This document shows positions 42,374 through 59,654 of a stretch of DNA of 64,000 bases, piece after piece; position 1 is the first letter of the stretch; each line of letters starts with the position of its first letter. The notes below the pieces were generated by a model. That model was given only the letters and a program-made list of their open reading frames with translations, was not told where the DNA came from and did not search any database. Position numbers and translations under genes: made by a program. The DNA comes from Actinomycetota bacterium. Lineage in GTDB: Bacteria > Actinomycetota > UBA4738 > HRBIN12. The DNA is taken from contig JBBECT010000004.1 in the NCBI GenBank assembly GCA_040881665.1, positions 117,782 to 181,781 of the forward strand. The letters are read 5' to 3'.

Positions 42374-42422
42374 GCGCCAGGTGACGGGAACCGGGTCGGG
42401 TCCCCGTCTCGTCCAACGACCC

Positions 42423-43280
42423 ATGCGCCCGACCATACGCATCCTCCCGGTCCTGATCGCCGGTGCGCTCGTGCTGGCCGCCTGTGGTTCCGTCCCGACC
42501 GGGGACGGTGGCACGGAGACGATCGACCATCCGACGGGCGCCGGCGACCTCGTGCTCCGGGTGAGCACCGAGGGCGGGTTCGTCCCTGTGGACTACGCGC
42601 TCTCGGCGGTGCCGGGTTTCTCCTTGATGGGCGACGGAACGATGATCGTCACCGGTCCGCAGATCGAGATCTACCCCCCACCGGCGATGACGCCTCTCGT
42701 GCAGCGATCGATCGACGAGGCGGGGGTGCAGGCGATCCTGCAGCGAGCCGAGGCGGCCGGACTGCTCGGACAGGATCGCTCGTACACCTCGATGCAGGTG
42801 ACCGACGCCCCCACCACGACCTTCACCGTCGTCGCCGGTGGAAAGGCCCACGTCGTCTCGGTCTACGCGCTCGGCATCGGCGACGACGCATCGGGCATGT
42901 CCGAGAGCGAGCGGCGGGACCGGCGTGCCCTCGGCGACCTCCAGAACGACCTGTTCGACCTGCAGCGTTGGTTGCCCGACGGCTCGATCGGTCCCGAGGT
43001 CCCCTTCACGCCGGCGGCCGTCCGCCTGTTCGTCGGGCGCTACCGGGGCGACGCCCAGGTCCCACAAGAATCGGTGCCCTGGCCCCTCGACGAGCCGCTG
43101 TCGGAGATCGCGGTCACCCCCGTTCCCGGCGGGTTCTCCTGCGGGGTCGTCGAGGGCGCGAACCTCGAAGCCGTTCTGCCCGAGCTCGACCGGGCGACGA
43201 CGCTCACCCCCTGGGTCAGTGACGGAAGGCGCTCCGCGCTGATCCCACGGCCGATGCTTCCCGACGAGCGCGGCTGCTAG
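42423..43280 (+). CDS. hypothetical lipoprotein, 285 aa
   Basis: LVLAAC lipobox after a hydrophobic signal. ATG at 42423. Confidence 0.55.
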   Translation: MRPTIRILPVLIAGALVLAACGSVPTGDGGTETIDHPTGAGDLVLRVSTEGGFVPVDYALSAVPGFSLMGDGTMIVTGPQIEIYPPPAMTPLVQRSIDEAGVQAILQRAEAAGLLGQDRSYTSMQVTDAPTTTFTVVAGGKAHVVSVYALGIGDDASGMSESERRDRRALGDLQNDLFDLQRWLPDGSIGPEVPFTPAAVRLFVGRYRGDAQVPQESVPWPLDEPLSEIAVTPVPGGFSCGVVEGANLEAVLPELDRATTLTPWVSDGRRSALIPRPMLPDERGC

Positions 43281-43530: not shown

Positions 43531-45789
43531 ATGGCGGCGGAGATGCCCGAACCCGGCGCAGCCGGAGATCCACAGATCGACATCGTGTCGCTCCCGATCG
43601 GGGGGCCGGCGCTGGAGCCCGTGAGTGCGGAGACCTCGCCGCAGGAGCTCACCGACCTCGTCGCCACGCTCCAGCAGCGCTACCGAGCACTGGCTGAGCG
43701 CCTGCCCGCGATCGTCTACGTCGACGAGATCAACGACATCTCCTCGAACCTCTACACGAGTCCTCAGACACTCGAGGTGCTCGGGATCACCCAGCACGAG
43801 TGGATGTCGGACCCCGACCTGTGGTTGAACATGCTCCACGACGACGATCGCCCCCGGGTGATCGTTGAGCACGAGCGTTCGAACGCGACGGGCGAGGACT
43901 TCGCTATCGAGTACCGGCTCCGGGCACGCGACGGCCATTGGGTCTGGATCCGCGATCACGCGGTGCAGATCCGAGACACCACGGGCCGGGCGAAGTACTG
44001 GCAGGGCGTGATGCTCGACGTGACCGACCTGAAGGAGGCGCAGCGCCAGCTCGCCGAGACTCAGAAGAAGTACAAGGCGATCGTGGAGGACATCCCCGCG
44101 ATCGTCTACATCGACGAGATCGACGATGCGATGACGACCTCGTTCGTGAGTCCCCAGATCGAGGAGCTGCTGGGGGTGACGCCCCGGGAGTACACCGACG
44201 ATCCGGAGCTCTGGTTCCGGATGCTGCATCCCGACGACCGTGACGAGACGTTGGCGCGCTACGTGGCGGGTCGTGACTCGGGCGAGAGCTTCGAGTTCGA
44301 GTACCGGCTGATCGGCCGCGAGGGACAGATCGTGTGGTTCCGCGACTCCGCGGTCGTGATCCGCGACGAGAACGGAGCTCCCGCGCAGGTCCAGGGCGTG
44401 ATGCTGGACATGACCGAGCGCAAGGAGGCCGAGGACAAGGCCGCCTTCCTCGCCTACCACGACAAGCTCACGGGCCTGCCGAACCGGGTCATGTTCGAGG
44501 AGCTCCTCGAGCTCGCGATCGCCCGTGCCCGCCGGCACGAGGCTGCGGTCGCCGTGGTGACGACCGACCTGGACGACTTCAAGCTCGTGAACGACTCACT
44601 GGGCCACGAGGCGGGCGACGAGCTGCTCCGCCAGCTCGCGGATCGTCTGCGTGAGGCCACCCGCGAGACCGACCTCGTCGCCCGTCAGGGTGGAGACGAA
44701 TTCCTCCTGCTCCTGTCCGACCTCGACCGGACGCCCGATGGGGTCGCGGAGATCGGCGACAGCGCCACGATCGTCGCAGAATCGGTCGCTGCGCGCGTGC
44801 AGCAAGCCTTGGACGACCCGTTCCTGCTCGACGGCACGGAGGTCTACGTCTCGGCGAGCGTGGGGGTGAGCCTGTTCCCGGCAGATGCCCAGGACGCAGG
44901 GACCCTGCTGAAGCACGCCGACCAAGCGATGCACCAAAGCAAGCGCATCGGCCCGGGCGGGATGTCGTTCCACACCGAGGACGAGGGCGACGCGATGACC
45001 CGCCTGTCGCTGACCACGCGTCTGCGCAAGGCCGTCGAGCAACAGGACTGGGAGCTGCATTATCAGCCGATCGTCGATCTGGACCGAGCGGAGATGGTCG
45101 GCGTCGAGGCCCTGATCCGCTGGCCCGATCCGAACGGCGGCCTGATCCCGCCCGGCGAGTTCATCCCGCTCGCCGAGGAGATGGGTCTGATCGAGGCGAT
45201 CGGTGACTGGGTCGTCGAGGAGGTGGCGCGCCAGGACACGATCTGGCGCGACCACGACCTTCGGCTCGAGCTCGGATTCAACCTCTCGCCGCGGCAGATG
45301 TGGCAGCCCGACCTCGCCGAGAAGATCATGAACCGCCTCGAGGCCACCGGTGTCGAGCCCGGCAACGTGGTCGTGGAGATCACCGAGTCGACGGCGATGA
45401 TCGACCCGGACCGGACGCAGCGGATCCTCAACGAGTTGCACGACCGCGGGCTACGCCTCGCGATCGACGACTTCGGTACGGGCTACTCGTCCCTGTCACG
45501 GCTGAAGCACCTGCCGGTCGACATCCTGAAGATCGACCGCGCGTTCGTGCGGGACGTCGACAAGGATCGCAACGCGGGGAGCATGGTCTCGGCGATGATC
45601 GCGCTGGCCGGCTCCCTGGGGATGACCCCGCTCGCCGAGGGCATCGAGACCGAGGAGGAATGGAAGTTCCTGCTCGACCACGGCTGCCTGCTCGGACAGG
45701 GCTTCTACTTCTCCAAGCCCGTCCCGGCCGAGGACATCACCGCTCGCCACCGGCGCCAGGGGATGCGCGTCGTCGACGCGACCGCCTGA
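43531..45789 (+). CDS. PAS-PAS-GGDEF-EAL signalling protein (diguanylate cyclase/phosphodiesterase)
   Basis: Two PAS/PAC units, an intact GGDEF motif (RQGGDEFLLL) and an EAL motif (EALIRWP). ATG at 43531 with AAGAGGGAAAAGG upstream. Confidence 0.85.
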   Translation: MAAEMPEPGAAGDPQIDIVSLPIGGPALEPVSAETSPQELTDLVATLQQRYRALAERLPAIVYVDEINDISSNLYTSPQTLEVLGITQHEWMSDPDLWLNMLHDDDRPRVIVEHERSNATGEDFAIEYRLRARDGHWVWIRDHAVQIRDTTGRAKYWQGVMLDVTDLKEAQRQLAETQKKYKAIVEDIPAIVYIDEIDDAMTTSFVSPQIEELLGVTPREYTDDPELWFRMLHPDDRDETLARYVAGRDSGESFEFEYRLIGREGQIVWFRDSAVVIRDENGAPAQVQGVMLDMTERKEAEDKAAFLAYHDKLTGLPNRVMFEELLELAIARARRHEAAVAVVTTDLDDFKLVNDSLGHEAGDELLRQLADRLREATRETDLVARQGGDEFLLLLSDLDRTPDGVAEIGDSATIVAESVAARVQQALDDPFLLDGTEVYVSASVGVSLFPADAQDAGTLLKHADQAMHQSKRIGPGGMSFHTEDEGDAMTRLSLTTRLRKAVEQQDWELHYQPIVDLDRAEMVGVEALIRWPDPNGGLIPPGEFIPLAEEMGLIEAIGDWVVEEVARQDTIWRDHDLRLELGFNLSPRQMWQPDLAEKIMNRLEATGVEPGNVVVEITESTAMIDPDRTQRILNELHDRGLRLAIDDFGTGYSSLSRLKHLPVDILKIDRAFVRDVDKDRNAGSMVSAMIALAGSLGMTPLAEGIETEEEWKFLLDHGCLLGQGFYFSKPVPAEDITARHRRQGMRVVDATA

Positions 45790-45840
45790 GGTCGTTCCCG
45801 ACCTACCGGACCCGACCGCCTCCCGCGTACGCTACGGGGC

Positions 45841-47139
45841 ATGCCGATCGCCTACGAACAGATCGAGGCGGAGAACCGGATCCTGCACCGTGTGATCGAG
45901 ACGATCTCGTCCAGCCTCGACCTCGATATCGTGCTCGACGAGACGATCGACCTCGTGATGGCCGCCACGCGCGGCGACGCCTGCTTCCTCCATCTCTACG
46001 ACGAGCAGCGGCAGGTGCTCACGCTGCGCGCCGCCTCGGAAGGCTTCCGGGGTGCGGTCGACCAGGTCGTGCTCGGGATCGGCGAAGGCGTCGCGGGCTG
46101 GGTCGCCGAGCACCGCGAGGTCGTGATCATCCCGGAGAACAAGTTCTCCGACCCGCGCTACAAATACATCCCCGAGTTGCGGGGTGAGCAGTTCACCTCC
46201 CTGTTGTCGGTGCCGCTCGTCTCCCGCAGCGGCTCGCTCGTCGGCGCGTTCAACGTCCATGCACGGGAGCGTCGCGACTTCTCCGACCGGGACGTCGAGT
46301 TCCTCCGTTCGACCTCCTCGCTCGTCGCCGCCGCGATCGAGCACGCGAACGTGTTCCGAGCTCTCGAGGAGAAGGAGGGAGCACTCGCAGACCTCGTCCG
46401 GCGAACGATCGAAACGCAGGAAGAGGAGCGGCGGCGGCTCGCCAGCGAGATCCACGACGGCGTGACCCAGCAGCTCGTTTCCGCCTGGTACCGGCTCCAG
46501 GCGCTTCGCCGCCACATGGGCGACCCCGAACGCGCCGAGACCGAGCTCGCACGAGCCCAGGAGATGGTCGACGCGGCGCTCGAGGAGGCGCGGTGGGCGA
46601 TCCAGGACCTGCGTCCGACCACGCTGGACGACCTCGGCCTCGGGCCGGCGCTCAAGGCACTCGTCGCGCGCTCGCTCGAGGACGAGACCGCGTTCGAGCT
46701 CGACGTCGACGACGCGATCACGCTCCCGAACCACCACGAGGTCGCCGTCTATCGGATCTGCCAGGAGGCGCTGAACAACGTGTGGAAGCACGCGGACGCC
46801 TCGCACGTCGCGGTCACCCTGACGGTCGAGAACGAACAGGTGCTGCTGCGCGTGACCGACGACGGAACGGGATTCGACGTTCGCGACTATCGGTCGAGGC
46901 GCCCCGAGACGTCGTTCGGTCTGCTCGGCATGTCCGAACGCGCCGACCTGATCGGCGGACGCATCGACGTCCGCAGCCGCCCGGGGGACGGAACCATCCT
47001 CGAGCTCCGCGTCCCGCAGCCACCGCCTGCCGATCCGCCGCCGGCATCCGGGCGACGGTCCCCCGCCGAGCACCCACAGCGACCCGGCCGGTCGCGCGAG
47101 GACGGGCGGAGCGAAGTGCAGGGGTGGAACGCGACATGA
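45841..47139 (+). CDS. GAF-domain sensor histidine kinase (HisKA_3/NarX-family)
   Basis: GAF domain, then the H-box EIHDGVTQ, then the HATPase_c domain (GFDVRDYRSRRPETSFGLLGMSERADLIGG). Confidence 0.85.
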   Translation: MPIAYEQIEAENRILHRVIETISSSLDLDIVLDETIDLVMAATRGDACFLHLYDEQRQVLTLRAASEGFRGAVDQVVLGIGEGVAGWVAEHREVVIIPENKFSDPRYKYIPELRGEQFTSLLSVPLVSRSGSLVGAFNVHARERRDFSDRDVEFLRSTSSLVAAAIEHANVFRALEEKEGALADLVRRTIETQEEERRRLASEIHDGVTQQLVSAWYRLQALRRHMGDPERAETELARAQEMVDAALEEARWAIQDLRPTTLDDLGLGPALKALVARSLEDETAFELDVDDAITLPNHHEVAVYRICQEALNNVWKHADASHVAVTLTVENEQVLLRVTDDGTGFDVRDYRSRRPETSFGLLGMSERADLIGGRIDVRSRPGDGTILELRVPQPPPADPPPASGRRSPAEHPQRPGRSREDGRSEVQGWNAT

Positions 47140-47792
47140 GCGACGACCCGATCTCGCTCGTGATCGTCGACGACCACCGGGTCGTGCGCGAAGGCCTGCG
47201 CGCGATGCTGGACGGGATCGAGGAGGTGCGCATCGTCGGCGAGGCCGAGGACGGAGCGGGCGCATTCGCCGAGATCGAACGGGAGCAGCCCCAGGTCGTC
47301 CTTCTCGACCTCCGGCTCCAGAAGGAGAGCGGGCTCGACATCTGCCGTGCGATCGGAGAGCGGTTCCCCGACGTGCACGTCGTGTTCCTCACGGTCTACG
47401 AGGACGAGCAGTACGTGTTCGAAGCGCTCCGTGCCGGCGCCCGCGGCTACATGCTGAAGAAAGCGAGTCCGGAGGACCTCGTTCGGATCCTCGGCAGCGT
47501 CCAGGCGGGTGAGGTCGTGATCGATCCCTCCCTCGGCGGGCAGATCGCGCTCCGCGCCGCATCGATGCGCACGGGCGACTCGTGGCCTGGCGTGCACGAA
47601 GGACTCACCCGCCGAGAGGGCGACGTGCTCGAGCAGCTCGTGAAGGGGTTGAACAACCGCGAGATCGCCGGGGCACTGTTCATCAGCGAGGACACCGTGA
47701 AGACGCACGTGCGGGGGGTGCTTCGCAAGCTCGGGGTGAAAGACCGCGCGCAGGCGGTCAGCTACGCGCTCCGCAACGGCCTGGCTACCTGA
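47136..47792 (+). CDS. NarL/LuxR-family response regulator
   Basis: Receiver domain (LVIVDDH..., VVLLDLRL) plus a LuxR HTH. ATG at 47136 overlaps the kinase stop (ATGA). Confidence 0.9.
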   Translation: MSDDPISLVIVDDHRVVREGLRAMLDGIEEVRIVGEAEDGAGAFAEIEREQPQVVLLDLRLQKESGLDICRAIGERFPDVHVVFLTVYEDEQYVFEALRAGARGYMLKKASPEDLVRILGSVQAGEVVIDPSLGGQIALRAASMRTGDSWPGVHEGLTRREGDVLEQLVKGLNNREIAGALFISEDTVKTHVRGVLRKLGVKDRAQAVSYALRNGLAT

Positions 47793-47793
47793 C

Positions 47794-47809
47794 GAGCGGC
47801 CGGGCTCGC
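47794..47809. terminator. short GC hairpin (CGAGC-ggccgg-GCTCG) between the convergent response-regulator and helicase stops, possible bidirectional terminator
   Basis: 5-bp stem only, no U-tract, 18-nt gap between convergent stop codons. Confidence 0.2.
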
Positions 47810-47810
47810 G

Positions 47811-49016
47811 TCAGAACTTGCGGCGGGTCGGCTTGCGCAGGCCCGAACGGCGACCGCGGGTGCTGCCGGAGAACACGACACGCGGAGGAGCGACCTTCAT
47901 GCCTTCCTCCTCGAACTCGCTGTGGAGGTCGAGGCGTGCCGCGACACGGCTGACGTCGCCCTGCTGCTCCGGTGTCACAAGGGTGATGCCGCTGCCCGAA
48001 CGTCCCGCTCGCGCCGTGCGACCGACGCGGTGGACATAGCCCTTGTCGTCTTCGGGCGGGTCGAAGTTGATCACGTGTGAGATGTCGTCGAGGTCGAGAC
48101 CGCGAGCGGCGACGTCGGTCGCGATCAGGACGTCGATCTTGCCGGCCTCGAACTGCTGCAGCGTGCGTTCGCGCACCGGCTGGCTCAGATCGCCATGCAG
48201 TGCAGCGACCTTGAGCCCTTTCGCCTTGAGCTTGCCGACGAGCCGGTCGGCCCCGCGCTTGGTTCGGACGAACACGAGCGCGAGCTTGCGGTCGTCTCCG
48301 GACAAGACCTCGAGCAGCGCGTCGACCTTGTCGTGGGTGCCGACGGGGATGAAGCGGTGATCGGCGGCCTCGACCGTCTGCTTCGGCGCCTCGATCTCGT
48401 GCAGACGCGCGTCGCGTGTGTAGGCGCTCGCCATGCGCCCGACCGCACCGTCGAGCGTCGCGGAGAAGAACATCGTCTGACGCCTCTTCGGGAGCTGCCG
48501 AACGATCCGATCGACCTGCGGTTGGAACCCCATGTCGAGCATCCGGTCGGCCTCGTCGAGGACGAGGGTCGAGATGCTGTCCAGCTTGATGAACCTGCGC
48601 TCGGCGAGGTCGAGCAACCGGCCGGGGGTGGCGATCACGATCTGCGAGGAACCGGCGCGCTTGCCCTGGTCGTTCACGCGGGTTCCGCCGTAGGCCAGCG
48701 CGACCTGGAGTCCGCGCGCGCCGGCGATCCCCTCGAATTCCTCCGCGACCTGGACGGCCAGCTCACGGGTCGGGACGAGCACGAGCGCGGACGGCGTCGG
48801 CGAGTCGGGCGTCAACCGCTGCACGATCGGGATCGCGAACCCGAGCGTCTTGCCCGAGCCGGTCTGCGACTTCGCGAGCACGTCGTAGCCGGCCGTGGCG
48901 TCCGGAAGGACCTCGGCTTGGATCGGGAAGGGTGCGACGGCACCGCGCTGGGCGAGGGCCTCGATCACGGCGTCGTCCACGTCGAATTCGCGGAACGAAG
49001 GTGTGGTGGTGGTCAT
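47811..49016 (-). CDS. DEAD-box ATP-dependent RNA helicase
   Basis: Q motif, Walker A SQTGSGKT, DEAD box (VLDEADRM), SAT and HRVGRTAR motifs. ATG verified at 49014-49016 with an AGGAGAA ribosome-binding site. Confidence 0.9.
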   Translation of the reverse strand: MTTTTPSFREFDVDDAVIEALAQRGAVAPFPIQAEVLPDATAGYDVLAKSQTGSGKTLGFAIPIVQRLTPDSPTPSALVLVPTRELAVQVAEEFEGIAGARGLQVALAYGGTRVNDQGKRAGSSQIVIATPGRLLDLAERRFIKLDSISTLVLDEADRMLDMGFQPQVDRIVRQLPKRRQTMFFSATLDGAVGRMASAYTRDARLHEIEAPKQTVEAADHRFIPVGTHDKVDALLEVLSGDDRKLALVFVRTKRGADRLVGKLKAKGLKVAALHGDLSQPVRERTLQQFEAGKIDVLIATDVAARGLDLDDISHVINFDPPEDDKGYVHRVGRTARAGRSGSGITLVTPEQQGDVSRVAARLDLHSEFEEEGMKVAPPRVVFSGSTRGRRSGLRKPTRRKF

Positions 49017-49179
49017 CCGGTTCTCCTGCTCTGGGGGCTGCGTGGCCGCGATCATCGACGTCACGGCGGGTCCGAAGTCCGACCCTTCGCGCACAGGAGC
49101 ACCGGAGAGGCGAACTTCACAGGAACGGCGCTCGCCGGTCCTTGTCAACGAGTCTACCAGGCACGACGGAGCGGCCGGG

Positions 49180-49185
49180 TAGGCT
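49180..49185 (+). promoter_or_regulatory. candidate -10 element TAGGCT (context GGGTAGGCTGGG) 7 nt upstream of the adenine deaminase ATG, implying a leaderless transcript
   Basis: Fits the actinobacterial -10 consensus TAnnnT. The same GGTAGGCTG core recurs at 54484, 58956 and (as TATAGGCT) 41616, each time upstream of a + strand gene. Confidence 0.3.
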
Positions 49186-49192
49186 GGGAGAG

Positions 49193-50959
49193 ATGCTCCC
49201 GGGACCGACGCACGAGCCGGGCACCCGCCGTGCTCGCACCGAAGAGCTGTCGCGACGGCTCGCGGTGGCGCGGGGCGAGGAGGCCGCGGACCTGGTCCTG
49301 ACCGGAGGCCGCGTCTTCTCCGTCTTCACGAACGAGTTCCTCGAGGTCGACGTCGCGATCTCGGGAGGACACGTCGCGGGCCTCGGGCGGTACGAGGGAA
49401 CCGAAACCGTGGATGTCGAGGGCGGGATCCTCGTGCCCGGTTTCATCGACGGACACCTGCACGTCGAGTCCACCAAGCTCGTGCCGGATCAGTTCGCGCG
49501 CGCCGTCCTGCCCCACGGGACGACGACAGCGGTCATCGATCCGCACGAGATCGCGAACGTCCTCGGCCTGGCCGGGGTCCGGGAACTCCTCCGGCGGATC
49601 GATGACGTACCGATCGACGTCTTCGTGATGGTCTCCAGCTGCGTGCCGGCGAGCCGATTCGAGTCCAGTGGGGCAACCGTCACCCCCGAGGAGATCGCCG
49701 CCTTCCTCCGTGAGGAGCCGCGAGCGCTCGGTGTTGCCGAGATGATGGACTTCCCCGGGGTGGCTCGGGGCGACCCGGTCGCCCTCGCGAAGATCGAGGC
49801 GGCCTACGACGCAGGAGACCGGCACATCGACGGTCACGCGCCGGGGCTGTCGGGCCCCGCCCTGAACGCCTACGTGGCGGCGGGCCCGGCGAGCGACCAC
49901 GAGTGCACGACGCAGGAGGAGGCGCTCGAGAAGCGTCGTCTCGGGATGTGGATCATGCTCCGAGAGGGATCCGCTGCCCGCAACCTCGAGGCGCTCCTGC
50001 CGCTCGTCCGCGATCACGGCCCTCGGAACTGCCTGCTGTGCACCGATGATCGAGAACCCAACGACCTCCGCGACGAGGGACACATGGACGCGGTGCTGCG
50101 ACGAGCCGTCGCCCTCGGCTGCCCCGCGGAGGACGCCCTCGTGATGGCCACGCTGCACGCCGCCCGGTACCACCGCCTGCATCGCTACGGTGCGATCGCT
50201 CCGGGCTCGCTCGCCGACATCGTGTTGCTCGATGACCTCCAGCGGTTCGCGCCCGCGCGTGTCTGGAAGCGCGGCCTGCTGGTCGCGGAGGACGGACGGG
50301 CGCTCGAGATCGGGTCACCTCCCCCGATGCCGGACTGGATGCGAGGTACCGTGCACGTGCCTGAGCTCACGACCGAGGACTTCGCGGTTCCCGCCGCGGA
50401 TCGCGTTCGCGTGATCGGCGTCCGCCCGGGTCAGATCGTGACGGATGCGCTCGAGGACGACGCGCTGGTACGCGGCGGGCGCAGCGTCGCCGACCCGGAT
50501 CGCGATCTCGCCAAGCTCGCGGTCGTCGAACGGCACGCGAAGACGGGGAGGATCGGTGTCGGGTTCGCACGGGGGTTCGGGATCCGGCGCGGCGCGCTCG
50601 CCTCGACGCACGCACACGACGCGCACAACATCGTGGCGCTCGGCGTCGACGACGAGGACATGGCCGTGGCCGTCCGACGGCTCGCGGAGATCGGTGGAGG
50701 ACAGGTCGCCGTCGCGCACGGCGACGTGCTCGCGGAACTCCCGTGCCCGATCGGCGGCTTGCTCACGGAGCTGGTCTTCGAGGAGGTTGCCGACCGGTTC
50801 GACCTGCTCGAGTCCTCGGCGCGCGAGCTGGGCGTCACGCTGCGAGCCCCGTTCATGGCGATGTCGTTCCTCGCGCTGTCGGTGATCGGTGATCTGAAGC
50901 TGACCGATCACGGCCTGCTCGACACGGTTCGGTTCGAACTCGTTCCGGTCGTGCTCTGA
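49193..50959 (+). CDS. adenine deaminase (amidohydrolase superfamily)
   Basis: VPGFIDGHLHVES metal-binding motif and the overall Ade architecture. ATG at 49193 lies only about 7 nt downstream of a TAGGCT hexamer. Confidence 0.85.
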   Translation: MLPGPTHEPGTRRARTEELSRRLAVARGEEAADLVLTGGRVFSVFTNEFLEVDVAISGGHVAGLGRYEGTETVDVEGGILVPGFIDGHLHVESTKLVPDQFARAVLPHGTTTAVIDPHEIANVLGLAGVRELLRRIDDVPIDVFVMVSSCVPASRFESSGATVTPEEIAAFLREEPRALGVAEMMDFPGVARGDPVALAKIEAAYDAGDRHIDGHAPGLSGPALNAYVAAGPASDHECTTQEEALEKRRLGMWIMLREGSAARNLEALLPLVRDHGPRNCLLCTDDREPNDLRDEGHMDAVLRRAVALGCPAEDALVMATLHAARYHRLHRYGAIAPGSLADIVLLDDLQRFAPARVWKRGLLVAEDGRALEIGSPPPMPDWMRGTVHVPELTTEDFAVPAADRVRVIGVRPGQIVTDALEDDALVRGGRSVADPDRDLAKLAVVERHAKTGRIGVGFARGFGIRRGALASTHAHDAHNIVALGVDDEDMAVAVRRLAEIGGGQVAVAHGDVLAELPCPIGGLLTELVFEEVADRFDLLESSARELGVTLRAPFMAMSFLALSVIGDLKLTDHGLLDTVRFELVPVVL

Positions 50960-50972
50960 CGCCGCCCGATCC

Positions 50973-52145
50973 TCAGTCTCGACGCAGACCGTGGCGTTCG
51001 GGCCCCGCATGCTCCACATCGGGATGAGCCTCGAGCCATGTGCGCAGCGACGCCCGCCACAGCGCCCGCTCGTGGAACTCCCCCGCTCGCCGAAGGCCTC
51101 CGACACCACCCCGCTGGAACAACGTGCGCAGCAGAGGAGCGAGCTGATCTCCGTAGAGCTGCATGCAGTCCTGCGGATGGACACCCGGCCAGGAGTAGCA
51201 GGACACGACCCAGCGACGGATCGCGTGCGGGATCTCGTCGGGCACCTCCTCCCACGCGGGATCGTCGGGAGCGAGCTTCCAACCGTCGAGATCTCCTTGG
51301 GGGATGCCCTCGATGCTCCGCACGGTCGGCGGATCGGCCTCGATCAGGTACGGATCGACGTTGCAGTCGCACACGACGGCGTGCTCGGGAAGCCACGCGA
51401 GCTGGTCGTTCGTGATGACGGGAAGGCTCGGATCGGAGCGCTGCGTGGTATCGACGAGGACGTCGGTCGCCGCCAGCCGGTTGCGCAGATAGTCCGCGTC
51501 GGCGGTCATGTTCCGCCCGAGCGTCACGACCTCCACTCCGCGCAGCCCTGCCAGTCGCTCCGCCCTGGTCGGGTCACCGTACTTCGTCGCCGCCTCGACG
51601 GCGTGCTTGCCGATCGCGCCGGCGCCGAGCACCGTGACGCGGACGGGGCCGCGCTCCGGGTCGCGGAGCCGCGGCCAATGGTCCTCCAACACCTCGAACG
51701 CGGCTTCGAGTCCGTTCCAGGCCACGGCGCGGCTGTTCACGACCAGGCGACGGCCCCGATCGTCGGCGATCGAATCGATCGAGATCGCTTCGAGCCCGAG
51801 TCGCTCGAGCCGTGCGACGCGGCGTGGCCGGGTCGGGTAGTGCAGCATCGAGATCAGTGTGGCACCGGGCTTCAACAGGTCGTACCGATCGTCGGGTGAT
51901 CGCAGCACGAGCACGACGTCCTGTGCGGCCGCCTCCTCGTTCGACCCGGGGCGTACGCCCGGTCCGACGGCCATGTAATCGGCATCGGTCAGCCCCATCC
52001 CCGAACCGATCCCCGTCTCGACGACGATCTCGACCCCGAGATCGGAGACCGCCTCGACGAGATCCGGGAGGAAGTCGCGGAGCTCGCCACGCTCCTTGTG
52101 CATGCGGGGCAGACCGAGCGAACGGGCGCGTCCTGCCTCGCTCAT
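50973..52145 (-). CDS. AlaDH/PNT-family NAD(P)-dependent dehydrogenase (saccharopine/opine dehydrogenase- or carboxyethylornithine synthase-like), 390 aa
   Basis: Rossmann VLGAGAIGKHAV around residue 172 and a conserved N-terminal LGLPRMHKERGE block. ATG verified at 52143-52145. The track ORF 5' extension to 53033 is Arg-rich artefact. Confidence 0.7.
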   Translation of the reverse strand: MSEAGRARSLGLPRMHKERGELRDFLPDLVEAVSDLGVEIVVETGIGSGMGLTDADYMAVGPGVRPGSNEEAAAQDVVLVLRSPDDRYDLLKPGATLISMLHYPTRPRRVARLERLGLEAISIDSIADDRGRRLVVNSRAVAWNGLEAAFEVLEDHWPRLRDPERGPVRVTVLGAGAIGKHAVEAATKYGDPTRAERLAGLRGVEVVTLGRNMTADADYLRNRLAATDVLVDTTQRSDPSLPVITNDQLAWLPEHAVVCDCNVDPYLIEADPPTVRSIEGIPQGDLDGWKLAPDDPAWEEVPDEIPHAIRRWVVSCYSWPGVHPQDCMQLYGDQLAPLLRTLFQRGGVGGLRRAGEFHERALWRASLRTWLEAHPDVEHAGPERHGLRRD

Positions 52146-53305
52146 CCGTGACGCTCCAGCCATCCATGCAGTTCCGCCCGCGCGACGGCCCGCTCCCAGA
52201 AGCTCACACCGTCCTCGCTCCACTGGTCCACCGGCCGATGCAGGATGAAGCGGAGGACCGGCTCGAGCTGCTCGCCGTACACGTCCATGCACCGGCGCGG
52301 CGACAGGCCCGGCCAGGCGGAGCACGAGAGAGTCCGGCGCCGGTTCGTCCGGTCGATCCGCGGGTCGAGGTCGTCGAACGCGGGGTCGTCGGGTTCGAAT
52401 ACCCACCGATCGAGATCTCCGTGCGGGATCCCCTCGATCCCCTTGATCAGCGGTGGATCGTGGGCCAGGTCGTATGGATCCACGGAGAGATCCAGCACGA
52501 GCGCATCCGCCGGCAACCGTGCGAGCCACCGGTTCGGTATCACGGCGCGCGTCGGATCGGGCCGCTGGGTCGCATCGACGAGCAGGTCGGTCTTCGCGAG
52601 CCGGTCGAGCATGTACTGCTCGTGCGAGGTGAGGTCGTAGTCGACGACGGTCACCTCGACGCCGGGAACCCCGCCGGCCGCCAGCCGGTCGCGCACCCCG
52701 GTATCGCCGTACCGCGTCGCGGCGTGGATCGCGTGGCTCGCCACGTGGCCCGACCCGAGCACGGTCACGCGAACGGAACCCCGCGCCGGATCGTCGAACC
52801 CTTCCTGCCGGCGCTCGAGCTGCTCGAAGGCGGCGCGCACGCCGTTCCATCCCACGGATTCGAGGTTCTCGATCAACCGCCTCCCCAGATCGTCGGCGAT
52901 CGAGTCGAGCGAGACCGCTCCGAGCCCCTGGGCGGCGATCATCGCTGTGCGGTTGGGGCGCGTCGGGTAGTGGAGCATCGACACGAGCAGGGCACCCGGA
53001 CGCATCCTCCCGATCGCCTCGTCGTCGGGGCACCGGATAACGACGACCACGTCCTGTCGCAACGCGTCCTCGTACGAGGAGAACCGGACCTCCGGGGCGA
53101 ACGCCCGATAATCCTCCTCGGACGCGTCGATCCCCGATCCGTACCCCTCTTCGAGCACGATGTCCGAGCAGGAGGGCTCCGCCGCGAGCGATGCGACGAG
53201 ATCGGGGAGGAAGTCGCGGCGCTCGCCGGCCTCCTTGTGCATCCGAGGGAACCCCAGCGTCAACCGCCGATCCGGAGGTGCAGGAGGTATCGCTCTTCCG
53301 ATCAC
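52142..53305 (-). CDS. AlaDH/PNT-family NAD(P)-dependent dehydrogenase, tandem paralog of the downstream gene
   Basis: Collinear similarity to the gene at 50973-52145 throughout (PRMHKEAGERRDFLPDLV..., VLGSGHVASHAI). Its stop overlaps the downstream start by 4 nt. Track start at 53305; the codon was not verified. Confidence 0.7.
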   Translation of the reverse strand: MIGRAIPPAPPDRRLTLGFPRMHKEAGERRDFLPDLVASLAAEPSCSDIVLEEGYGSGIDASEEDYRAFAPEVRFSSYEDALRQDVVVVIRCPDDEAIGRMRPGALLVSMLHYPTRPNRTAMIAAQGLGAVSLDSIADDLGRRLIENLESVGWNGVRAAFEQLERRQEGFDDPARGSVRVTVLGSGHVASHAIHAATRYGDTGVRDRLAAGGVPGVEVTVVDYDLTSHEQYMLDRLAKTDLLVDATQRPDPTRAVIPNRWLARLPADALVLDLSVDPYDLAHDPPLIKGIEGIPHGDLDRWVFEPDDPAFDDLDPRIDRTNRRRTLSCSAWPGLSPRRCMDVYGEQLEPVLRFILHRPVDQWSEDGVSFWERAVARAELHGWLERHG

Positions 53306-53371
53306 GCCCGGGACGCTAGCGCGAGCGGCGCCATGCGACCAGCGTCACCGTCGCCCGATCGCGGGACCGGT

Positions 53372-54355
53372 TCAGAGGTCGAGCGCGCCGCGCAGGGAGC
53401 CGCTGAGGTGGGCCACGATCAGCAACTGGGTAAGCGCCAGCGCCTCGCTCCTGCGCCGGTCGCCGCTCGGATGCTCGTAGCGCCCGATGTTCGTCCGGTG
53501 CAGCCCCGGTCTGCCCAGTCGCGTCCAGATCGCCTGTTCGATCGCGGCGCCGGCCACGGCGGGGCAGTCCCCGTCGATCTCGACGACCTGCACCGGCGTG
53601 CCGAGCGAGCGGTCGCGGGCCAGTCGCACCGGTTCTCGCCGACCCCCACCCGGGATCCCCCGCACGACGTTCGCGAGCTCGGAGCTCAGCAGCGAGGGAC
53701 GCAACGCGATCCGCGCACCGAGGTTCGCGTACGCGTCGGGGTTCGTGCGCCGGAGGAACGAGACGACGACGTCGGCGTGCTCTGCCTGTGGACGGACATA
53801 CAGGGCCGAGTCTCGTTCCCGCCGGCGGAGGTCGGCGACGACCTGGGCGATCTCGTACCCGCGCTCCTCGCAGTCGCGGGCGATCTTCCATCGGTGTCGC
53901 AGCTCCTCCTCGGGCTCGAGGTAGACGGACACATCGAAGCAGTCGCGGAGGCCCCGCGTTCCGAGCGCGAGCAGTCCCTCGACGATCACGACCTCCTTCG
54001 GCTCAACCATGACGGGGTCGGTGTGTCTGCCGGTCGCGTGGTCGTACACGGGCTTGTCCACCGCATCGCCTCGGGCGAGCGCGCGGAGGTGGCGCTCGAT
54101 CGCCGGCAGATCGTTCGCCTCGGGATGCAGCGGCGTGATGCCGAGGCGCTCGCGTTCCGACCGGTCATGCCGGTGGTAGTCGTCGACACAGATCCGCGTC
54201 ACCCGGTGTTCGCCCAGGAGCGCCCGGATCCCCTCGGCGAGCGTCGTCTTGCCAGATGCGCTGTCGCCGGCGACCGCGAGCATCACCGGTCGCGGCCCGG
54301 CGTGGGCGGCCCCGGCCACCCGGAGATCGATCACGCGCTCTGCGGTTTGCACCAT
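53372..54355 (-). CDS. phosphoribulokinase/uridine kinase-family protein
   Basis: Walker A GDSASGKTT and PRK-like body. Start region ATG 54353-54355 or GTG 54350-54352, with AGGAG just upstream. Confidence 0.7.
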   Translation of the reverse strand: MVQTAERVIDLRVAGAAHAGPRPVMLAVAGDSASGKTTLAEGIRALLGEHRVTRICVDDYHRHDRSERERLGITPLHPEANDLPAIERHLRALARGDAVDKPVYDHATGRHTDPVMVEPKEVVIVEGLLALGTRGLRDCFDVSVYLEPEEELRHRWKIARDCEERGYEIAQVVADLRRRERDSALYVRPQAEHADVVVSFLRRTNPDAYANLGARIALRPSLLSSELANVVRGIPGGGRREPVRLARDRSLGTPVQVVEIDGDCPAVAGAAIEQAIWTRLGRPGLHRTNIGRYEHPSGDRRRSEALALTQLLIVAHLSGSLRGALDL

Positions 54356-54483
54356 GCTCCTGATGGTAAGAAGCGGCAGGTCAGACCCACAGCCCCCTGG
54401 GGGTGGAGCCGGGGGTGAACCCGCCCTCACCCGCCGGGGTGAGCCGCTCCGGTTCCGCGGCCCTCGCGCGCACGACGCGGCGG

Positions 54484-54489
54484 TAGGCT
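54484..54489 (+). promoter_or_regulatory. candidate -10 element TAGGCT (CGGTAGGCTGG) 44 nt upstream of the transketolase ATG
   Basis: Recurring motif. A leader with a GGAGGGG ribosome-binding site follows. Confidence 0.3.
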
Positions 54490-54533
54490 GGCGGCCCCGC
54501 GGCAACGCGGCCGGAAGGCGGAGGGGTGAGGGC

Positions 54534-56366
54534 ATGGAGAAGGTCCAGGAGTGGAACGAGCTGGCGGCCCAGCTCGCGATCGACAGCATCCGGTGCTCGA
54601 CGGCCGCCGGATCGGGCCACCCGACCTCGTCGATGTCCGCCGCGCACCTGCTCGCCGTCCTGTATTCCGACCACCTGCGCTACGACGTCGCCGAGCCGCG
54701 ACACCCGGGAGGCGACCGATTCGTGCTCTCCAAGGGGCACGCCTCGCCACTGATGTTCTCCACGCTGAAGGCGATCGGCGCGATCACCGACGAACAGCTG
54801 CTGACGTTCCGGACCTTCGGCAGCCCGGTCGAGGGGCATCCGGTGCCGCTTCCCGACATGCCGTGGATCGACGTGGCGACGGGCTCCCTCGGACAGGGCC
54901 TGCCGATCGGTCTGGGTATGGCGCTCGGTCTGCGGATCCTCGAACGTCCCGGCCGAGTGTGGGTCTTGATGGGGGACTCGGAGGTCACCGAGGGTTCAGT
55001 CTGGGAAGCGATGGAGAACGCGAGCTACCACGGCCTCGACAACCTGATCGGGATCCTCGACATGAATCGGCTCGGACAGCGCGGTCCGACGATGCTCCAG
55101 TGGGACGGCGAGGCCTACGCCCGGCGCGCCGAGGCCTTCGGCTGGCACGCGCGGGTGATCGACGGGCACGACGTCGCCGCGATCACCGACGCCTACCGGG
55201 AGGCCGAGGAGACGGTGGGTCCGAGTCTGATCGTGGCGAAGACCGAGAAGGGACACGGTGTCTCGTTCCTCGCGAACAAGGAAGGCTGGCACGGGAAGGT
55301 GCTGAGCGCCGAGCAGGCCACGCAGGCGATCGAGGAGCTGGGTGGCGAGCGGGCGATCGCGATCACCCCCGCGAAGCCCGAGCAGATCGACTCCCCCGAG
55401 CCGGCGCGCCGCACCCTCGAACTGCCCGTGTTCGACGATGCGATCGCGACCCGGAGGGCGTTCGGCGACACCCTCGCCGCGCTCGCGTCGGCACGCGGAG
55501 ACGTGGTCGCGCTCGACGCGGAGGTCGGCAACTCCACGTACACCGAGGAGGTCGAACAGGCCGAACCCGCCCGGTTCGCACAGATGTTCATCGCGGAGCA
55601 GGCGATGCTCGGGGCGTCGGTGGGACTCCAAGCGGTCGGACTCACTCCGTTCGCCGCGACCTTCGGGGCGTTCCTCTCGCGTGCGTACGATTTCGCGCGC
55701 ATGGCGGCGATCAGCCGCGCGCACATCCGGTTGTGCGGCTCGCACGCCGGGGTGTCGATCGGCGAGGACGGTCCGTCTCAGATGGCTCTGGAGGACCTGG
55801 CCTCGTTCCGCGCGATCAACGGGTCGACGGTGATCTACCCGGCGGACGGAACCTCCACCGCCGCACTCGTCGCGACGATGGCCGACTGGGACGGCGTGGC
55901 GTTCATGCGGACGACCCGGGAGGCGACGCCGAAGCTGTACGCCGACGGTGAGGCGTTCCCGATCGGCGGCAGCAAGGTGCACGACGCGTCCGCCGACGAC
56001 CACGCGACGATCGTCGGCGCCGGGATCACCCTCGTCGAAGGCCTGGCGGCCGCCGAGTTGCTCCGGGCCGAAGGAACGCCCGTGCGCGTTATCGATGTCT
56101 ACTCGGTCAAGCCGATCGACGGCGCCACCCTTCGGCAGGCGATGGAGGAGACCGGCCTGCTCGTCGTCGTCGAGGACCACCGGACCGAGGGCGGGATCGG
56201 TGAGGCGGTGCTGGAGGCACTGGCCGAAGACGGGCGCGCGCTGTCGGGGAAGGTCGTGAAGCTCGCCGTGACGAAGATGCCGATGTCCGGATCGCCCACC
56301 GAGCTCCGCGACTGGGCGGGGATAAGCGCGTCGAAGATCGCAGACGCGGTGCGGGCGAAGCTCTAG
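54534..56366 (+). CDS. tkt: transketolase (single-chain; TPP-binding N-terminal, pyrimidine-binding middle and C-terminal domains), 610 aa
   Basis: TPP-binding region GDRFVLSKGHASP...GSLGQGL...LMGDSEVTEGSVWEA and a C-terminal transketolase domain. GGAGGGG ribosome-binding site 7 nt before ATG 54534. Confidence 0.8.
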   Translation: MEKVQEWNELAAQLAIDSIRCSTAAGSGHPTSSMSAAHLLAVLYSDHLRYDVAEPRHPGGDRFVLSKGHASPLMFSTLKAIGAITDEQLLTFRTFGSPVEGHPVPLPDMPWIDVATGSLGQGLPIGLGMALGLRILERPGRVWVLMGDSEVTEGSVWEAMENASYHGLDNLIGILDMNRLGQRGPTMLQWDGEAYARRAEAFGWHARVIDGHDVAAITDAYREAEETVGPSLIVAKTEKGHGVSFLANKEGWHGKVLSAEQATQAIEELGGERAIAITPAKPEQIDSPEPARRTLELPVFDDAIATRRAFGDTLAALASARGDVVALDAEVGNSTYTEEVEQAEPARFAQMFIAEQAMLGASVGLQAVGLTPFAATFGAFLSRAYDFARMAAISRAHIRLCGSHAGVSIGEDGPSQMALEDLASFRAINGSTVIYPADGTSTAALVATMADWDGVAFMRTTREATPKLYADGEAFPIGGSKVHDASADDHATIVGAGITLVEGLAAAELLRAEGTPVRVIDVYSVKPIDGATLRQAMEETGLLVVVEDHRTEGGIGEAVLEALAEDGRALSGKVVKLAVTKMPMSGSPTELRDWAGISASKIADAVRAKL

Positions 56367-58873
56367 GCGATCGAGATCGTCTCGCCCGGCGCCGCGCCGT
56401 CGACGACCAGTTCCCCAGCCCGGATCTTCTCGGTGAGTTCGTCCGCGGGGATCGGACGCGAGAAGTAGTAACCCTGGCCGAGCTGGCAGCCCTGCCCCGC
56501 GAGGTACTGCCACTCATTCTCGGTCTCGATGCCTTCGGCGAGGGTTTTCATCCCCAGGCCCCGGCCGAGCTCGATCACGGCGGTCACGATGCTCGCCGCC
56601 TCTTGATCGCGGTGCACCGCGCTGACGAACGCGCGGTCGATCTTCAGCACGTCGATCGGCAGGAACCGGAGCCGCGACAACGAGGAGTATCCGGTTCCGA
56701 AGTCGTCCAGTGCCAGCGTGAGTCCGCGTGAATGCAACTCGCTGAGCACATAGAGCCAGCGGTCGAAGTCCTTGACCGCCGAGGACTCCGTGATCTCCAC
56801 GACGATCCGGCTCGGGTCCACCCCGCCCGCGTCGAGGCGGTCGAGGATGCGCGAGGAGATGTCGGGCTGCCACAACTGCCGAGGCGAGAGATTGAAGCCG
56901 ATCTCGAGCGGGATCTCAGCCTGCCGCCACACCGCGTCCTGCCGGGCGATCTCCTCGACGACCCAATCGCCGATCGTCTCGATCAGGCCGAGCTCTTCGG
57001 ACAGCGTGATGAAGTCGTTGGGGGGAACGAGGTTCCCGTCAGGCTCGCGCCAGCGCAGCAGCGCTTCGACCCCGATCATGCCGCCGCTGCCCAAGTCGAC
57101 CACCGGCTGGTAATGCAGTTCCCACTGCTCGTGCTCGACGGCCTTGCGCAGCCGCGTGACGAAGGAGAGCTTCGCGATCGAGTCGACACCCACGGACGAG
57201 GCGAGCACGTAGCCTCCGACGCCGCCCTTCTTCGCCTCGGCCATGGCCGCCTCCGCCCCGAGGAGGAGGTCCTTGCGCGTCGCCGCGTGCTGGGGGAACA
57301 AAGAGATCCCGAGGCTCGCCGAGAGGTAGAGCTCGGTGCCGGCGACGGTGAACGGCTCCCGGAGGGAGTCGTGGATCCGTCCCGCCACACCCTCGGCGGT
57401 GACGATGGCCGCATCGAGCTCGCCCATCTCCTCGGTCTCGAGGTCGGCGAGCAGCAGGAGGAACTGGTCCCCACTCATGCGTGCGACGAGATCGGTCTCC
57501 CGGGTCGCCTCCCGCAGACGTTCCGCCAGCTGCCCCAACACCTCGTCCCCCGCCTCGTGGCCGAGGGAATCGTTCACGAGCTTGAAGTCGTCGATGTCGA
57601 GGACGAGCACCGCGACCGAACCGTCGTGGCGCCCCGCCCGCGCCATCGCCAGATCGAGGAACTCGTCGAACATCGCACGGTTCGGCAGGCCGGTTCGCTC
57701 GTCGTGGTAGGCGAGGAAGGCCGCCTCCTCCTCCGCGTGCTTCTGTGCGGTGATGTCCTGCATGAAGCCCTGGGAGATCACCGGCGTGCCCCACTCGTCA
57801 TGGACGATCTTCGCGACGTCGCGAACCCAGACGACGCTGCCGTCCTTGTGGATCATCCGGTACTCGACGTCGAACACCTCACCCGTCGTGTTGTGACGGC
57901 TGTTCTCCGCGACGGCGCGATCGCGGTCGTCCGGGTGCAACACCTCGATCCACACGTCGTCGCTCGCGGTGAACTCTTCGACGGTGTAGCCGAGGAGCTC
58001 TTCGATCTGCGGGCTGATGTAGGCGGTCGTTGCCTCATCGTTGAGCTCGTCGGCGTAGGTGACCGCGGGGATGTTCTCCACGAGCGCCCGGTAGCGCGCC
58101 TCGGCGCTGCGCCGAGCGTCGTCGGCGACCTGGCGGCCGATCGCGGTGCCGAGGTGGGACGCCATCACGCGGAGCATGTCGAGTTCGACCTCGTCCCAGA
58201 CGCGTTCCCGGACGCAGTCGTCGAATCCCATGAAACCCCACCAGCGCTCGCCGGCGAAGATCGGAACGAAGCAGTAGGAGTGGATCCCCTCGCTGACCAT
58301 GTCCTCGCGCTCGTTGCCCGACACGCTCGACCGCCCTCGTTGGATGATCTCGCCGGCAGGCATCCGCTCGAGCCAGTCCGCGTAGCCGTCCTCGTAGGGC
58401 CAGTCGTGGTTGTCGGGGAGCGGCAGCGTGGCCGGGACCTGGTCCGCGCACCACTCGAAGCGCTGATCCATCAGGACGCGACCGTCGCCGTCGGTCCCGT
58501 TCTCGAACACGTAGGCGCGGCTGGCCTCCGCCGCGGTCCCGAGCTCGGCGAGCACGACTTCGATCGACCGCTCCCACGAGCCGCTGCGCAGGAAATGCTC
58601 CGTCGCGAACGAGACCGATTGCAGGATCGTCTCGCGGCGCTGCAGGACGCGCTGCTGCTCTCCGACGCGCCGTGCCATCACCAAGAGGTAGCCGAGGAAC
58701 AGCCCGGCCATCCCGAGCAGGGACGCCCGCAGGATCAGGGCCGCTGTGCTCGCCGCGGGCACGACGAGGAAGGCCGCCGCGACCGCGGCAGCGAACAGCG
58801 CGATGGCGACGGCCTCGGTCAAGCGCCGTGCGCCCGCGCGGGAACCCGCAGGATCTCGTTGTGCTCTCCCCAT
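56363..58873 (-). CDS. membrane-anchored GAF-PAS-GGDEF(degenerate)-EAL signalling protein, about 836 aa
   Basis: Two N-terminal transmembrane helices, then a GAF-like region, a PAS domain, a degenerate GGDEF-family domain (RMSGDQFLLL) and an intact EAL (EALLRWR). ATG at 58871-58873; the track ORF 5' extension to 59752 overlaps a + strand gene and is Arg/Gly-rich. Confidence 0.75.
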   Translation of the reverse strand: MGRAQRDPAGSRAGARRLTEAVAIALFAAAVAAAFLVVPAASTAALILRASLLGMAGLFLGYLLVMARRVGEQQRVLQRRETILQSVSFATEHFLRSGSWERSIEVVLAELGTAAEASRAYVFENGTDGDGRVLMDQRFEWCADQVPATLPLPDNHDWPYEDGYADWLERMPAGEIIQRGRSSVSGNEREDMVSEGIHSYCFVPIFAGERWWGFMGFDDCVRERVWDEVELDMLRVMASHLGTAIGRQVADDARRSAEARYRALVENIPAVTYADELNDEATTAYISPQIEELLGYTVEEFTASDDVWIEVLHPDDRDRAVAENSRHNTTGEVFDVEYRMIHKDGSVVWVRDVAKIVHDEWGTPVISQGFMQDITAQKHAEEEAAFLAYHDERTGLPNRAMFDEFLDLAMARAGRHDGSVAVLVLDIDDFKLVNDSLGHEAGDEVLGQLAERLREATRETDLVARMSGDQFLLLLADLETEEMGELDAAIVTAEGVAGRIHDSLREPFTVAGTELYLSASLGISLFPQHAATRKDLLLGAEAAMAEAKKGGVGGYVLASSVGVDSIAKLSFVTRLRKAVEHEQWELHYQPVVDLGSGGMIGVEALLRWREPDGNLVPPNDFITLSEELGLIETIGDWVVEEIARQDAVWRQAEIPLEIGFNLSPRQLWQPDISSRILDRLDAGGVDPSRIVVEITESSAVKDFDRWLYVLSELHSRGLTLALDDFGTGYSSLSRLRFLPIDVLKIDRAFVSAVHRDQEAASIVTAVIELGRGLGMKTLAEGIETENEWQYLAGQGCQLGQGYYFSRPIPADELTEKIRAGELVVDGAAPGETISIA

Positions 58874-59428: not shown

Positions 59429-59654
59429 CCCGCGGCCACGACGGCCGCTCGATCCAGTCTCTTTAGCTCTCGTCGACCCGTTGACCCGGGGTTCGAGGAG
59501 CCGAACATCCTTCGGTCTGACGGGTTTCCGCACCAGATTCTTCCGGGTATCATGGGCTTTCCCGAACGTATCGACGATGTGCGGCCTGAACGACGAGTGA
59601 ACGCGGGGACCCAGCCGACCGAACGGCGATCGAGACCGGCGAGGAGGTCGAGTG

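Follow-up and report, generated by a model that had tools for sequence, protein, structure and literature searches.

Two paralogous GGDEF-EAL genes in one window

The window analysed here, a stretch of 64,000 nucleotides (nt) of contig JBBECT010000004.1 from an Actinomycetota bacterium, has a G+C content of about 70% and carries two genes, P1 and P2, which lie 10 kb apart on opposite strands and encode proteins with a shared PAS-GGDEF-EAL core (Table 1). We read them as ancient paralogues within the composite class of GGDEF-EAL proteins that turn over cyclic di-GMP (c-di-GMP), kept as a syntenic pair in an uncultured soil and sediment lineage of Actinomycetota. For this pair we established domain content, homology, motif states, conservation and synteny. 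Both open reading frames (ORFs) were present where an earlier sequence-only reading had placed them, and the peptides quoted there were found in the translations of P1 and P2. Besides these two genes, no third GGDEF/EAL gene or further paralogue was found in the 64-kb window.

Table 1. Genes and domains of the P1-P2 region, with positions counted in the window
Feature	Coordinates	Strand	Evidence
P1, soluble PAS-PAS-GGDEF-EAL protein, clade A, 752 aa	43531..45789	+	ORF, translation, Pfam
P1 tandem PAS (aa 61-164, aa 195-299)	43711..44427	+	Pfam PAS_3 x2, E = 2.3e-45
P1 GGDEF domain (aa 308-474)	44452..44952	+	Pfam GGDEF, E = 2.8e-43
P1 EAL domain (aa 497-730)	45019..45720	+	Pfam EAL, E = 1.6e-73, catalytic signature residues complete
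P2, 2TM-GAF-PAS-GGDEF(SGDQF)-EAL protein, clade B, subclade B9, 836 aa from ATG 58873	56363..58873	-	ORF, Pfam
P2 N-terminal hydrophobic hairpin, two predicted TM helices	58673..58813	-	Kyte-Doolittle scan
P2 GAF domain, 'WWGFxGFDD' type (aa 103-245)	58139..58567	-	Pfam GAF, E = 3.1e-10
P2 PAS domain (aa 260-376)	57746..58096	-	Pfam PAS_3, E = 4.2e-24, and PAS
P2 GGDEF-like domain (aa 388-551)	57221..57712	-	Pfam GGDEF, E = 2.3e-41
P2 EAL domain (aa 574-807)	56453..57154	-	Pfam EAL, E = 3.4e-71, catalytic signature residues complete
Hypothetical protein of ~300 aa upstream of P1, conserved neighbour of clade A	42351..43280	+	sub-threshold DUF6438 match only
DEAD-box helicase, between both paralogues in other genomes too, conserved	47811..49016	-	Pfam, synteny
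Transketolase, convergent with P2, conserved neighbour of clade B	54534..56366	+	Pfam, gene calls, synteny

BLASTP aligned residues 149-752 of P1 with 218-828 of P2 at 55% identity over 617 amino acids (aa) (663 bits, E = 0.0), which is far beyond chance. The alignment starts in the second PAS of P1 and runs collinearly through to the C-terminal end, as had been proposed for the PAS, GGDEF and EAL regions. The first PAS of P1 and the single PAS of P2 are 44% identical, and the two genes share about 70% identity over 1689 nt at the DNA level. Protein searches from P1 and from P2 each recovered thousands of relatives, nearly all from uncultured Actinomycetota. A neighbour-joining (NJ) tree of the shared PAS-GGDEF-EAL core was built from 234 sequences and separated clade A (n = 116; P1 and other proteins of about 745 aa with two PAS domains) from clade B (n = 110; P2 and other GAF-PAS proteins). 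Clade B was composed of 88 soluble proteins of about 756 aa, nearly all with GGDQF (B88), 9 proteins with SGDQF including P2 (B9), and 13 proteins bearing a membrane hairpin together with GGDEF or GGDDF (B13).

Recent duplication or gene conversion was ruled out, since the A-B identity within the genome (0.55) equals that to the P2 orthologue of a related metagenome-assembled genome (MAG; 0.56) and the longest exact DNA match between the two genes is 23 nt. The two clades of the tree, the conserved synteny described below and the equal within- and cross-genome identities thus point to an ancient duplication; each protein has its own orthologue family, and both families occupy matching syntenic positions in many distantly related uncultured Actinomycetota. 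The sequence-only reading had proposed duplication followed by sub-functionalisation; true paralogy stands, while the duplication was neither recent nor local, and sub-functionalisation is not obligatory, given the B13 orthologues with GGDEF and the loss of the clade A gene in two species.

Eight sequences fell outside both clades. They are 900-1163 aa long, carry between two and four PAS domains and share an intact QGGDEF with P1, so the Gln of the clade B motif is probably derived. A GAF domain (PF01590) is listed for 7 of the 8, and at least one of them has the identical WWGFMGFDD motif. The proposal that P2 had gained its GAF domain is therefore unsupported in its polarity; loss from the P1 line is equally possible. 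The GAF domain is a trait of the clade B family and the membrane hairpin a trait of subclades.

The N-terminus of P2 is strongly hydrophobic, with the best hydropathy window at aa 21-39, and Arg-rich stretches flank it. By our own reading, the hydrophobic stretch would form two segments, about aa 21-43 and about aa 47-67, joined by a loop of few residues, and we read it as a hairpin anchor without a sizeable extracytoplasmic domain. Two separate transmembrane (TM) segments were resolved by Kyte-Doolittle analysis in 7 of the 9 B9 proteins and in all 13 B13 proteins; the hairpin was absent from all 88 soluble B88 proteins and is restricted to the other two subclades. An N-terminal membrane anchor and a GAF-like sensor, both previously proposed for P2, were thus recovered by hydropathy and by Pfam, respectively.

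The AlphaFold (AF2) model of the P2 GAF domain had a pLDDT of 90.5, and its top fold matches were the GAF domains of cyanobacteriochromes and phytochromes. A profile of the clade B GAF domains matched the same PDB entries best (6OAP, E = 6e-14). In the alignment to 6OAP, the canonical chromophore-binding Cys-His pair was not found in the clade B GAF domain, and Glu-Arg of the family consensus aligns there; bilin binding is therefore not proposed and a photoreceptor reading of this domain was set aside. A genome scan with the GAF profile found the 'WWGFxGFDD' subfamily in 392 GTDB species representatives, in many phyla and with varied outputs. Carriers include Chloroflexota, Acidobacteriota, Desulfobacterota and one record titled Methanosarcinales (loci L008-L086).

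At 99.5% identity, the window matches contig JBBDOJ010000006.1 of GCA_040877085.1 (locus L001), assembled from a metagenome and labelled 'Actinomycetota bacterium', with 75 mismatches in 17.6 kb and one amino-acid change, located in the second TM segment (TM2) of P2. Because the identity is high and not full, the two represent the same species in a different assembly or strain. Public annotation of P1 and P2 alike is 'EAL domain-containing protein', the name given in Actinomycetota MAGs to protein P0121, which is identical to P1. Protein P0001 covers 98% of the P2 query at an identity that rounds to 100%; a single residue is different. NCBI starts the near-identical P2 gene at TTG 58822 (819 aa) rather than at ATG 58873 (836 aa). 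The ATG start keeps the Arg-rich 'ARR' motif, and since orthologues conserve 'ARR' directly before the first TM segment (TM1), it seems at least as plausible as the TTG. Neither P1 nor P2 reached the cut-off of any named NCBIfam equivalog (DibA, PdeR/PRK10060, DosP and others), and only domain-level models passed. The best equivalog match was DibA, whose cut-off is 980; it scored 470 bits for P1 and 417 bits for P2. With every score below its curated cut-off, assignment to a named equivalog family was dropped.

Motif states and conservation of the catalytic domains

The PF00990 model is covered from position 1 to 158 of 161 in both P1 and P2, and both proteins also match TIGR00254. The SGDQF region of P2 thus lies in a bona fide GGDEF domain, and the possibility that it was not homologous to GGDEF domains, which had been named as a refutation of the sequence-only reading, did not hold. 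The inhibitory site (I-site) and active site (A-site) of P1 translate as RETDLVARQGGDEF at 44662-44703 (+), and the corresponding stretch of P2 is RETDLVARMSGDQF at 57461-57502 (-), in which SGDQF occupies 57461-57475. P1 retains GGDEF (codons GGT GGA GAC GAA TTC) and conforms to the A-site consensus GG(D/E)EF, while P2 departs from it with SGDQF (AGT GGG GAC CAG TTC), both as had been read earlier. The Ser and the Gln substitutions each need a single base change. The I-site RxxD, five residues upstream of the A-site, reads RETD in both proteins, and its Arg and Asp are invariant in all clades; the comparison of the two sites that had been suggested thus gave an altered A-site in P2 and a kept I-site in both proteins.

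By column counts, position 4 of the motif is Glu in 116/116 clade A proteins, of which 112 keep the full GGDEF, and Gln in 83/88 B88 and 9/9 B9 proteins (92/97 together). All nine B9 proteins have Ser at position 1, and in this subclade Met or Leu precedes the motif, not Arg/Lys. P1 and P2 both have the equivalents of PleD D327, N335, D344 and K442, which are essentially invariant across clades A and B; the equivalent of H340 is likewise conserved in both clades and kept in P2. At the equivalent of PleD R446 (window positions 44953-44970, aa 475 of P1; about 57230-57250 in P2), P1 has Pro and P2 has Val. Pro is found there in 112/116 clade A, 87/88 B88 and 13/13 B13 proteins, and Arg in 7/9 B9 proteins.

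In diguanylate cyclases, the Asp and Glu of the GGDEF motif coordinate the catalytic Mg ions, K442 and R446 of PleD bind the beta and gamma phosphates, and D327, N335 and D344 are essential (PMC3509222, PMC7288161). With Pro at a ligand position of PleD, the intact motif of P1 is no guarantee of a good cyclase, and the absence of a basic R446 equivalent questions its cyclase competence. The earlier description of P1 as a 'soluble bifunctional enzyme', which had the motif alone as its basis, therefore appears overstated. P1, a soluble enzyme with two PAS domains in which neither signature motif is altered, can probably make as well as break c-di-GMP, and its PAS domains would set the balance.

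The EAL domains are complete in both proteins. The EAL-R, N and E-x-x-E residues, the DDFG(T/A)GYSS loop 6 (DDFGTGYSS) and the K, E and Q of the signature are all present, and these residues are invariant or nearly so across the 226 members of clades A and B. P2 keeps an intact EAL, as had been claimed.

Constraint on the domains was compared in 12 genomes with both genes, giving 66 genome pairs; the truncated orthologue L008_A was left out. Identity between orthologues in the GGDEF domain was 74.3% in clade B versus 69.5% in clade A, and in 55 of the 66 pairs the clade B domain was at least as conserved as that of clade A. For the PAS and EAL domains, clade A was the more conserved. Relaxed selection or decay of the altered GGDEF domain was ruled out by these values. 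The Gln-bearing domain is under strong purifying selection, at least as strong as on the canonical domain of P1, and the altered domain is therefore functional.

Gene order and neighbouring genes

Synteny loci were taken from GTDB species representatives by means of the GAF profile, and a locus was counted only if the GAF protein had GGDEF-EAL and was followed by a transketolase; most matches of the genome scan were unrelated GAF proteins of other phyla. The whole region was collinear in a relative of 81% identity. In more distant genomes the order was B> <transketolase (PRK>) DEAD-helicase> <A <~300-aa hypothetical, with the paralogues always convergent and 4-6 kb apart. The order clade B gene, transketolase, helicase, clade A gene was found in at least 16 loci (species representatives). 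At L010 the full gene order occurs with a clade B gene of subclade B13 that keeps GGDEF. The hypothetical of about 300 aa was detected by BLASTP beside the clade A gene in L004-L006, L021, L025 and others. In L020 and L030, the clade B gene, transketolase, DEAD helicase and hypothetical are kept, but the hypothetical follows the helicase without a clade A gene in between, a pattern that indicates loss of the canonical (P1) paralogue.

Unrelated flanking genes are also collinear, namely a solute-binding protein, a CN-hydrolase, a TetR, phosphoesterases and a 472-aa hypothetical. General synteny thus accounts for the linkage to the transketolase and the DEAD helicase, a specific functional meaning of which was unsupported, and we read the P1-P2 linkage as lineage-wide synteny that is no proof of functional coupling.

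The convergent P2 and transketolase genes overlap by 4 nt at their stop codons (56363-56366), and the clade B gene and the transketolase abut likewise in distant relatives (L004-L006 and others). A PRK-family kinase gene (phosphoribulokinase/uridine kinase family) adjoins the transketolase and is found in some but not all relatives. Between the paralogues, positions 48932-54355 also encode an adenine deaminase (+) and two adjacent proteins with an AlaDh_PNT_N domain (-). After a gap of 51 nt behind P1, a GAF-HisKA_3-HATPase histidine kinase and a NarL/GerE-type response regulator are encoded at 45841-47792 (+). A kinase occurs at the equivalent place in L008 and L010 and is absent in L004-L006, so that it is a lineage-specific insertion into the conserved block. 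Upstream of P2 are two conserved hypotheticals without a Pfam match, of 157 aa at 58978-59451 (-) and of 472 aa at 59652-61070 (+); the position of the latter is conserved in L003 and L004.

Proposed role of P2 and its alternatives

The activities and the regulatory role of P1 and P2 are what we infer from these sequences, and on this basis P2 is likely a membrane-tethered, GAF- and PAS-controlled phosphodiesterase in which the GGDEF-like domain serves as a nucleotide-binding regulatory relay. P2 would be held at the cytoplasmic membrane by its two-helix N-terminal hairpin, would sense a cytoplasmic signal through the GAF and PAS domains, and would act mainly as a c-di-GMP phosphodiesterase through the intact EAL. 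With Gln in place of the Glu at the fourth position, the GGDEF-like domain most likely makes little or no c-di-GMP. Because the guanine-binding Asn and Asp, the metal-binding Asp, the Lys and the RxxD are kept and the domain is under purifying selection, it would most likely pass signals from the sensors to the EAL, with GTP bound at the half-active site and c-di-GMP at the I-site. Of the two classes that predominate among GGDEF-EAL proteins, one consists of hybrids with a sensor partner and an intact site in the EAL domain only; for CC3396, GTP was confirmed to exert control by way of a degenerate GGDEF (PMC2952852).

Several points weigh against the relay proposal. The syntenic P2 orthologues of subclade B13 keep GGDEF or GGDDF, so Gln would not be essential to the role of the P2 family; the NJ tree, whose internal branches are short, is compatible with a single origin of Gln followed by reversal and also with two origins. 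The Val at the R446 equivalent, a position held by Pro in most relatives, could also weaken GTP binding and with it the proposed GTP-sensing role. Among GGDEF-EAL hybrids, an I-site kept beside a degenerate A-site is reported to be the minority case (PMC2952852), which makes the ligand proposed for the P2 domain less certain. Finally, ZMO1055, a protein with GGDQF, was reported to have cyclase activity (PMC12900916), so Gln is no proof of inactivity.

The last point leads to the reading that P2 is still bifunctional, with the SGDQF site a weak or conditional diguanylate cyclase, so that only their sensors and location would distinguish the paralogues. The remaining GTP and metal ligands that were checked are all conserved, and the GGDEF-like domain as a whole is highly conserved. 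Enzymes with SGDEF are active. VCA0965, with AGDEF, is active as well and shows that a change at the first Gly is tolerated (PMC3974145); Gly to Ser alone is therefore not expected to inactivate. Cyclase activity was reported not only for ZMO1055 but also for ZMO0401 with GNDEF (PMC12900916). Against this, RgsP, with its GGDQF motif, showed no cyclase activity in vitro (PMC6107284), the substituted Glu belongs to the Asp-Glu pair that coordinates the catalytic metals, and P2 deviates from the consensus in three places at once (Ser1, Gln4 and the Val of the R446 equivalent). We consider a bifunctional P2 unlikely. The prediction of the sequence-only reading that P2 is an inactive cyclase is likely by the example of RgsP, but it is not safe given ZMO1055.

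The Gln-type motif could also mark a non-canonical catalysis, such as the conversion of 2',3'-cGMP to 2',3'-c-di-GMP reported for RSp0334, a PAS-PAC-GGDQF-EAL protein with the sequence LLARLGGDQF and the determinants L542, L545 and D548 (PMC10667535). P2 reads LVARMSGDQF, with hydrophobic residues at both equivalent positions and the Asp kept; the Met or Leu before the motif in B9 and the strong purifying selection on the domain fit as well. However, only one of the three determinants is identical in P2 (V, M, D versus L, L, D), Arg or Lys stands before the motif in the large B88 subclade, and Q549 of RSp0334 is dispensable, so that Gln is not diagnostic (PMC10667535). A single study stands behind this activity in the literature consulted, and we regard it as most improbable for P2. 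In P1, the determinant positions are V, Q and D; only the Asp is identical, and the RSp0334-type feature is lacking there. A further reading holds that P2 is mainly a non-enzymatic sensor or 'trigger', which would bind c-di-GMP at the I-site or the EAL site and act through protein contacts, possibly as a heteromer with P1. In its favour, neither family varies in RxxD, many genomes keep the two genes linked, mixed dimers are conceivable with a PAS-GGDEF-EAL core that is 55% identical, and trigger phosphodiesterases are an established concept (PMC5052742). The complete and nearly invariant EAL catalytic residues, however, argue for real hydrolysis; the linkage need not be functional when unrelated flanking genes are collinear too, and L020 and L030 keep the clade B gene without clade A. 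A trigger role is accordingly very unlikely in our estimate. It is likewise very unlikely that the Gln-bearing domain has a distinct activity or ligand, be it an RSp0334-like reaction or a dedicated GTP/c-di-GMP switch, which together with the cyanobacteriochrome-like, Cys-less GAF would make P1 and P2 a conserved two-enzyme signalling module of uncultured Actinomycetota.

For the membrane-tethered phosphodiesterase that we favour, a close precedent is RgsP (SMc00074) of Sinorhizobium meliloti, which hydrolyses c-di-GMP as an active phosphodiesterase and has no cyclase activity. Like P2, it is a membrane protein with PAS-GGDEF-EAL, a Gln-type A-site (GGDQF), an intact RxxD and an intact EAL (PMC6107284). 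The two differ at the N-terminus, where RgsP has a receptor region of the 7TMR type and P2 the 2-TM hairpin, and only P2 has a GAF and a Ser as first motif residue; RgsP is also alphaproteobacterial and tied to polar growth. PdeA (CC3396) of Caulobacter crescentus has the degenerate motif GEDEF. It resembles the proposal for P2 in being a PAS-degenerate GGDEF-EAL protein in which GTP binding controls the EAL (PMC2952852); it differs in being soluble and without GAF, and P2 is without the R446-equivalent phosphate ligand. The sequence prerequisites for PdeA-type control, namely a degenerate A-site, kept guanine ligands and an intact EAL, are present in P2. RSp0334 of Ralstonia solanacearum and ZMO1055 of Zymomonas mobilis are also GGDEF-EAL hybrids with a Gln-type motif (GGDQF), the former with a reported non-canonical 2',3'-c-di-GMP synthesis (PMC10667535) and the latter with reported cyclase activity (PMC12900916); both are proteobacterial, and their flanking residues are unlike those of P2.

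The solved structures closest to the GGDEF-EAL part of P2 are those of MucR (5M3C, E = 4e-94) and MorA (4RNH/4RNF, 2e-93) of Pseudomonas aeruginosa; DosP of E. coli follows with E = 1.7e-68, and P2 shares the tandem arrangement with these proteins. Unlike P2, MucR and MorA have a canonical GGDEF and, in the alignments, Arg or Lys at the R446 position, and their sensor modules differ. Other actinobacterial GGDEF-EAL proteins are the GAF-GGDEF-EAL proteins DcpA/MSDGC-1 of M. smegmatis and Rv1354c of M. tuberculosis, and RmdA (PAS-GGDEF-EAL) and RmdB of Streptomyces. MSDGC-1 has been cited as bifunctional (PMC2952852). Compared by their described architectures with DcpA, Rv1354c and RmdA, which belong to the same phylum, P2 is set apart by adding the TM hairpin, a PAS between GAF and GGDEF, and the Gln.

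In conclusion, P1 and P2 are an ordinary and already understood kind of pair, an old arrangement with no recent or unusual event. Hybrids with only the EAL site intact and an upstream sensor have been recognised since at least 2010 (PMC2952852), and GGDQF was already studied in RgsP, RSp0334 and ZMO1055, so that the pair refines the annotation of an uncultured actinomycete lineage without introducing a new principle. The GAF subfamily of P2 is widespread, with its 392 species representatives. P1 and P2 set a canonical GGDEF domain against a Gln-substituted one within the same genome, a natural matched comparison in which the altered domain is the more constrained, and the B13 orthologues with GGDEF could be a natural control for the effect of the Glu-to-Gln change.

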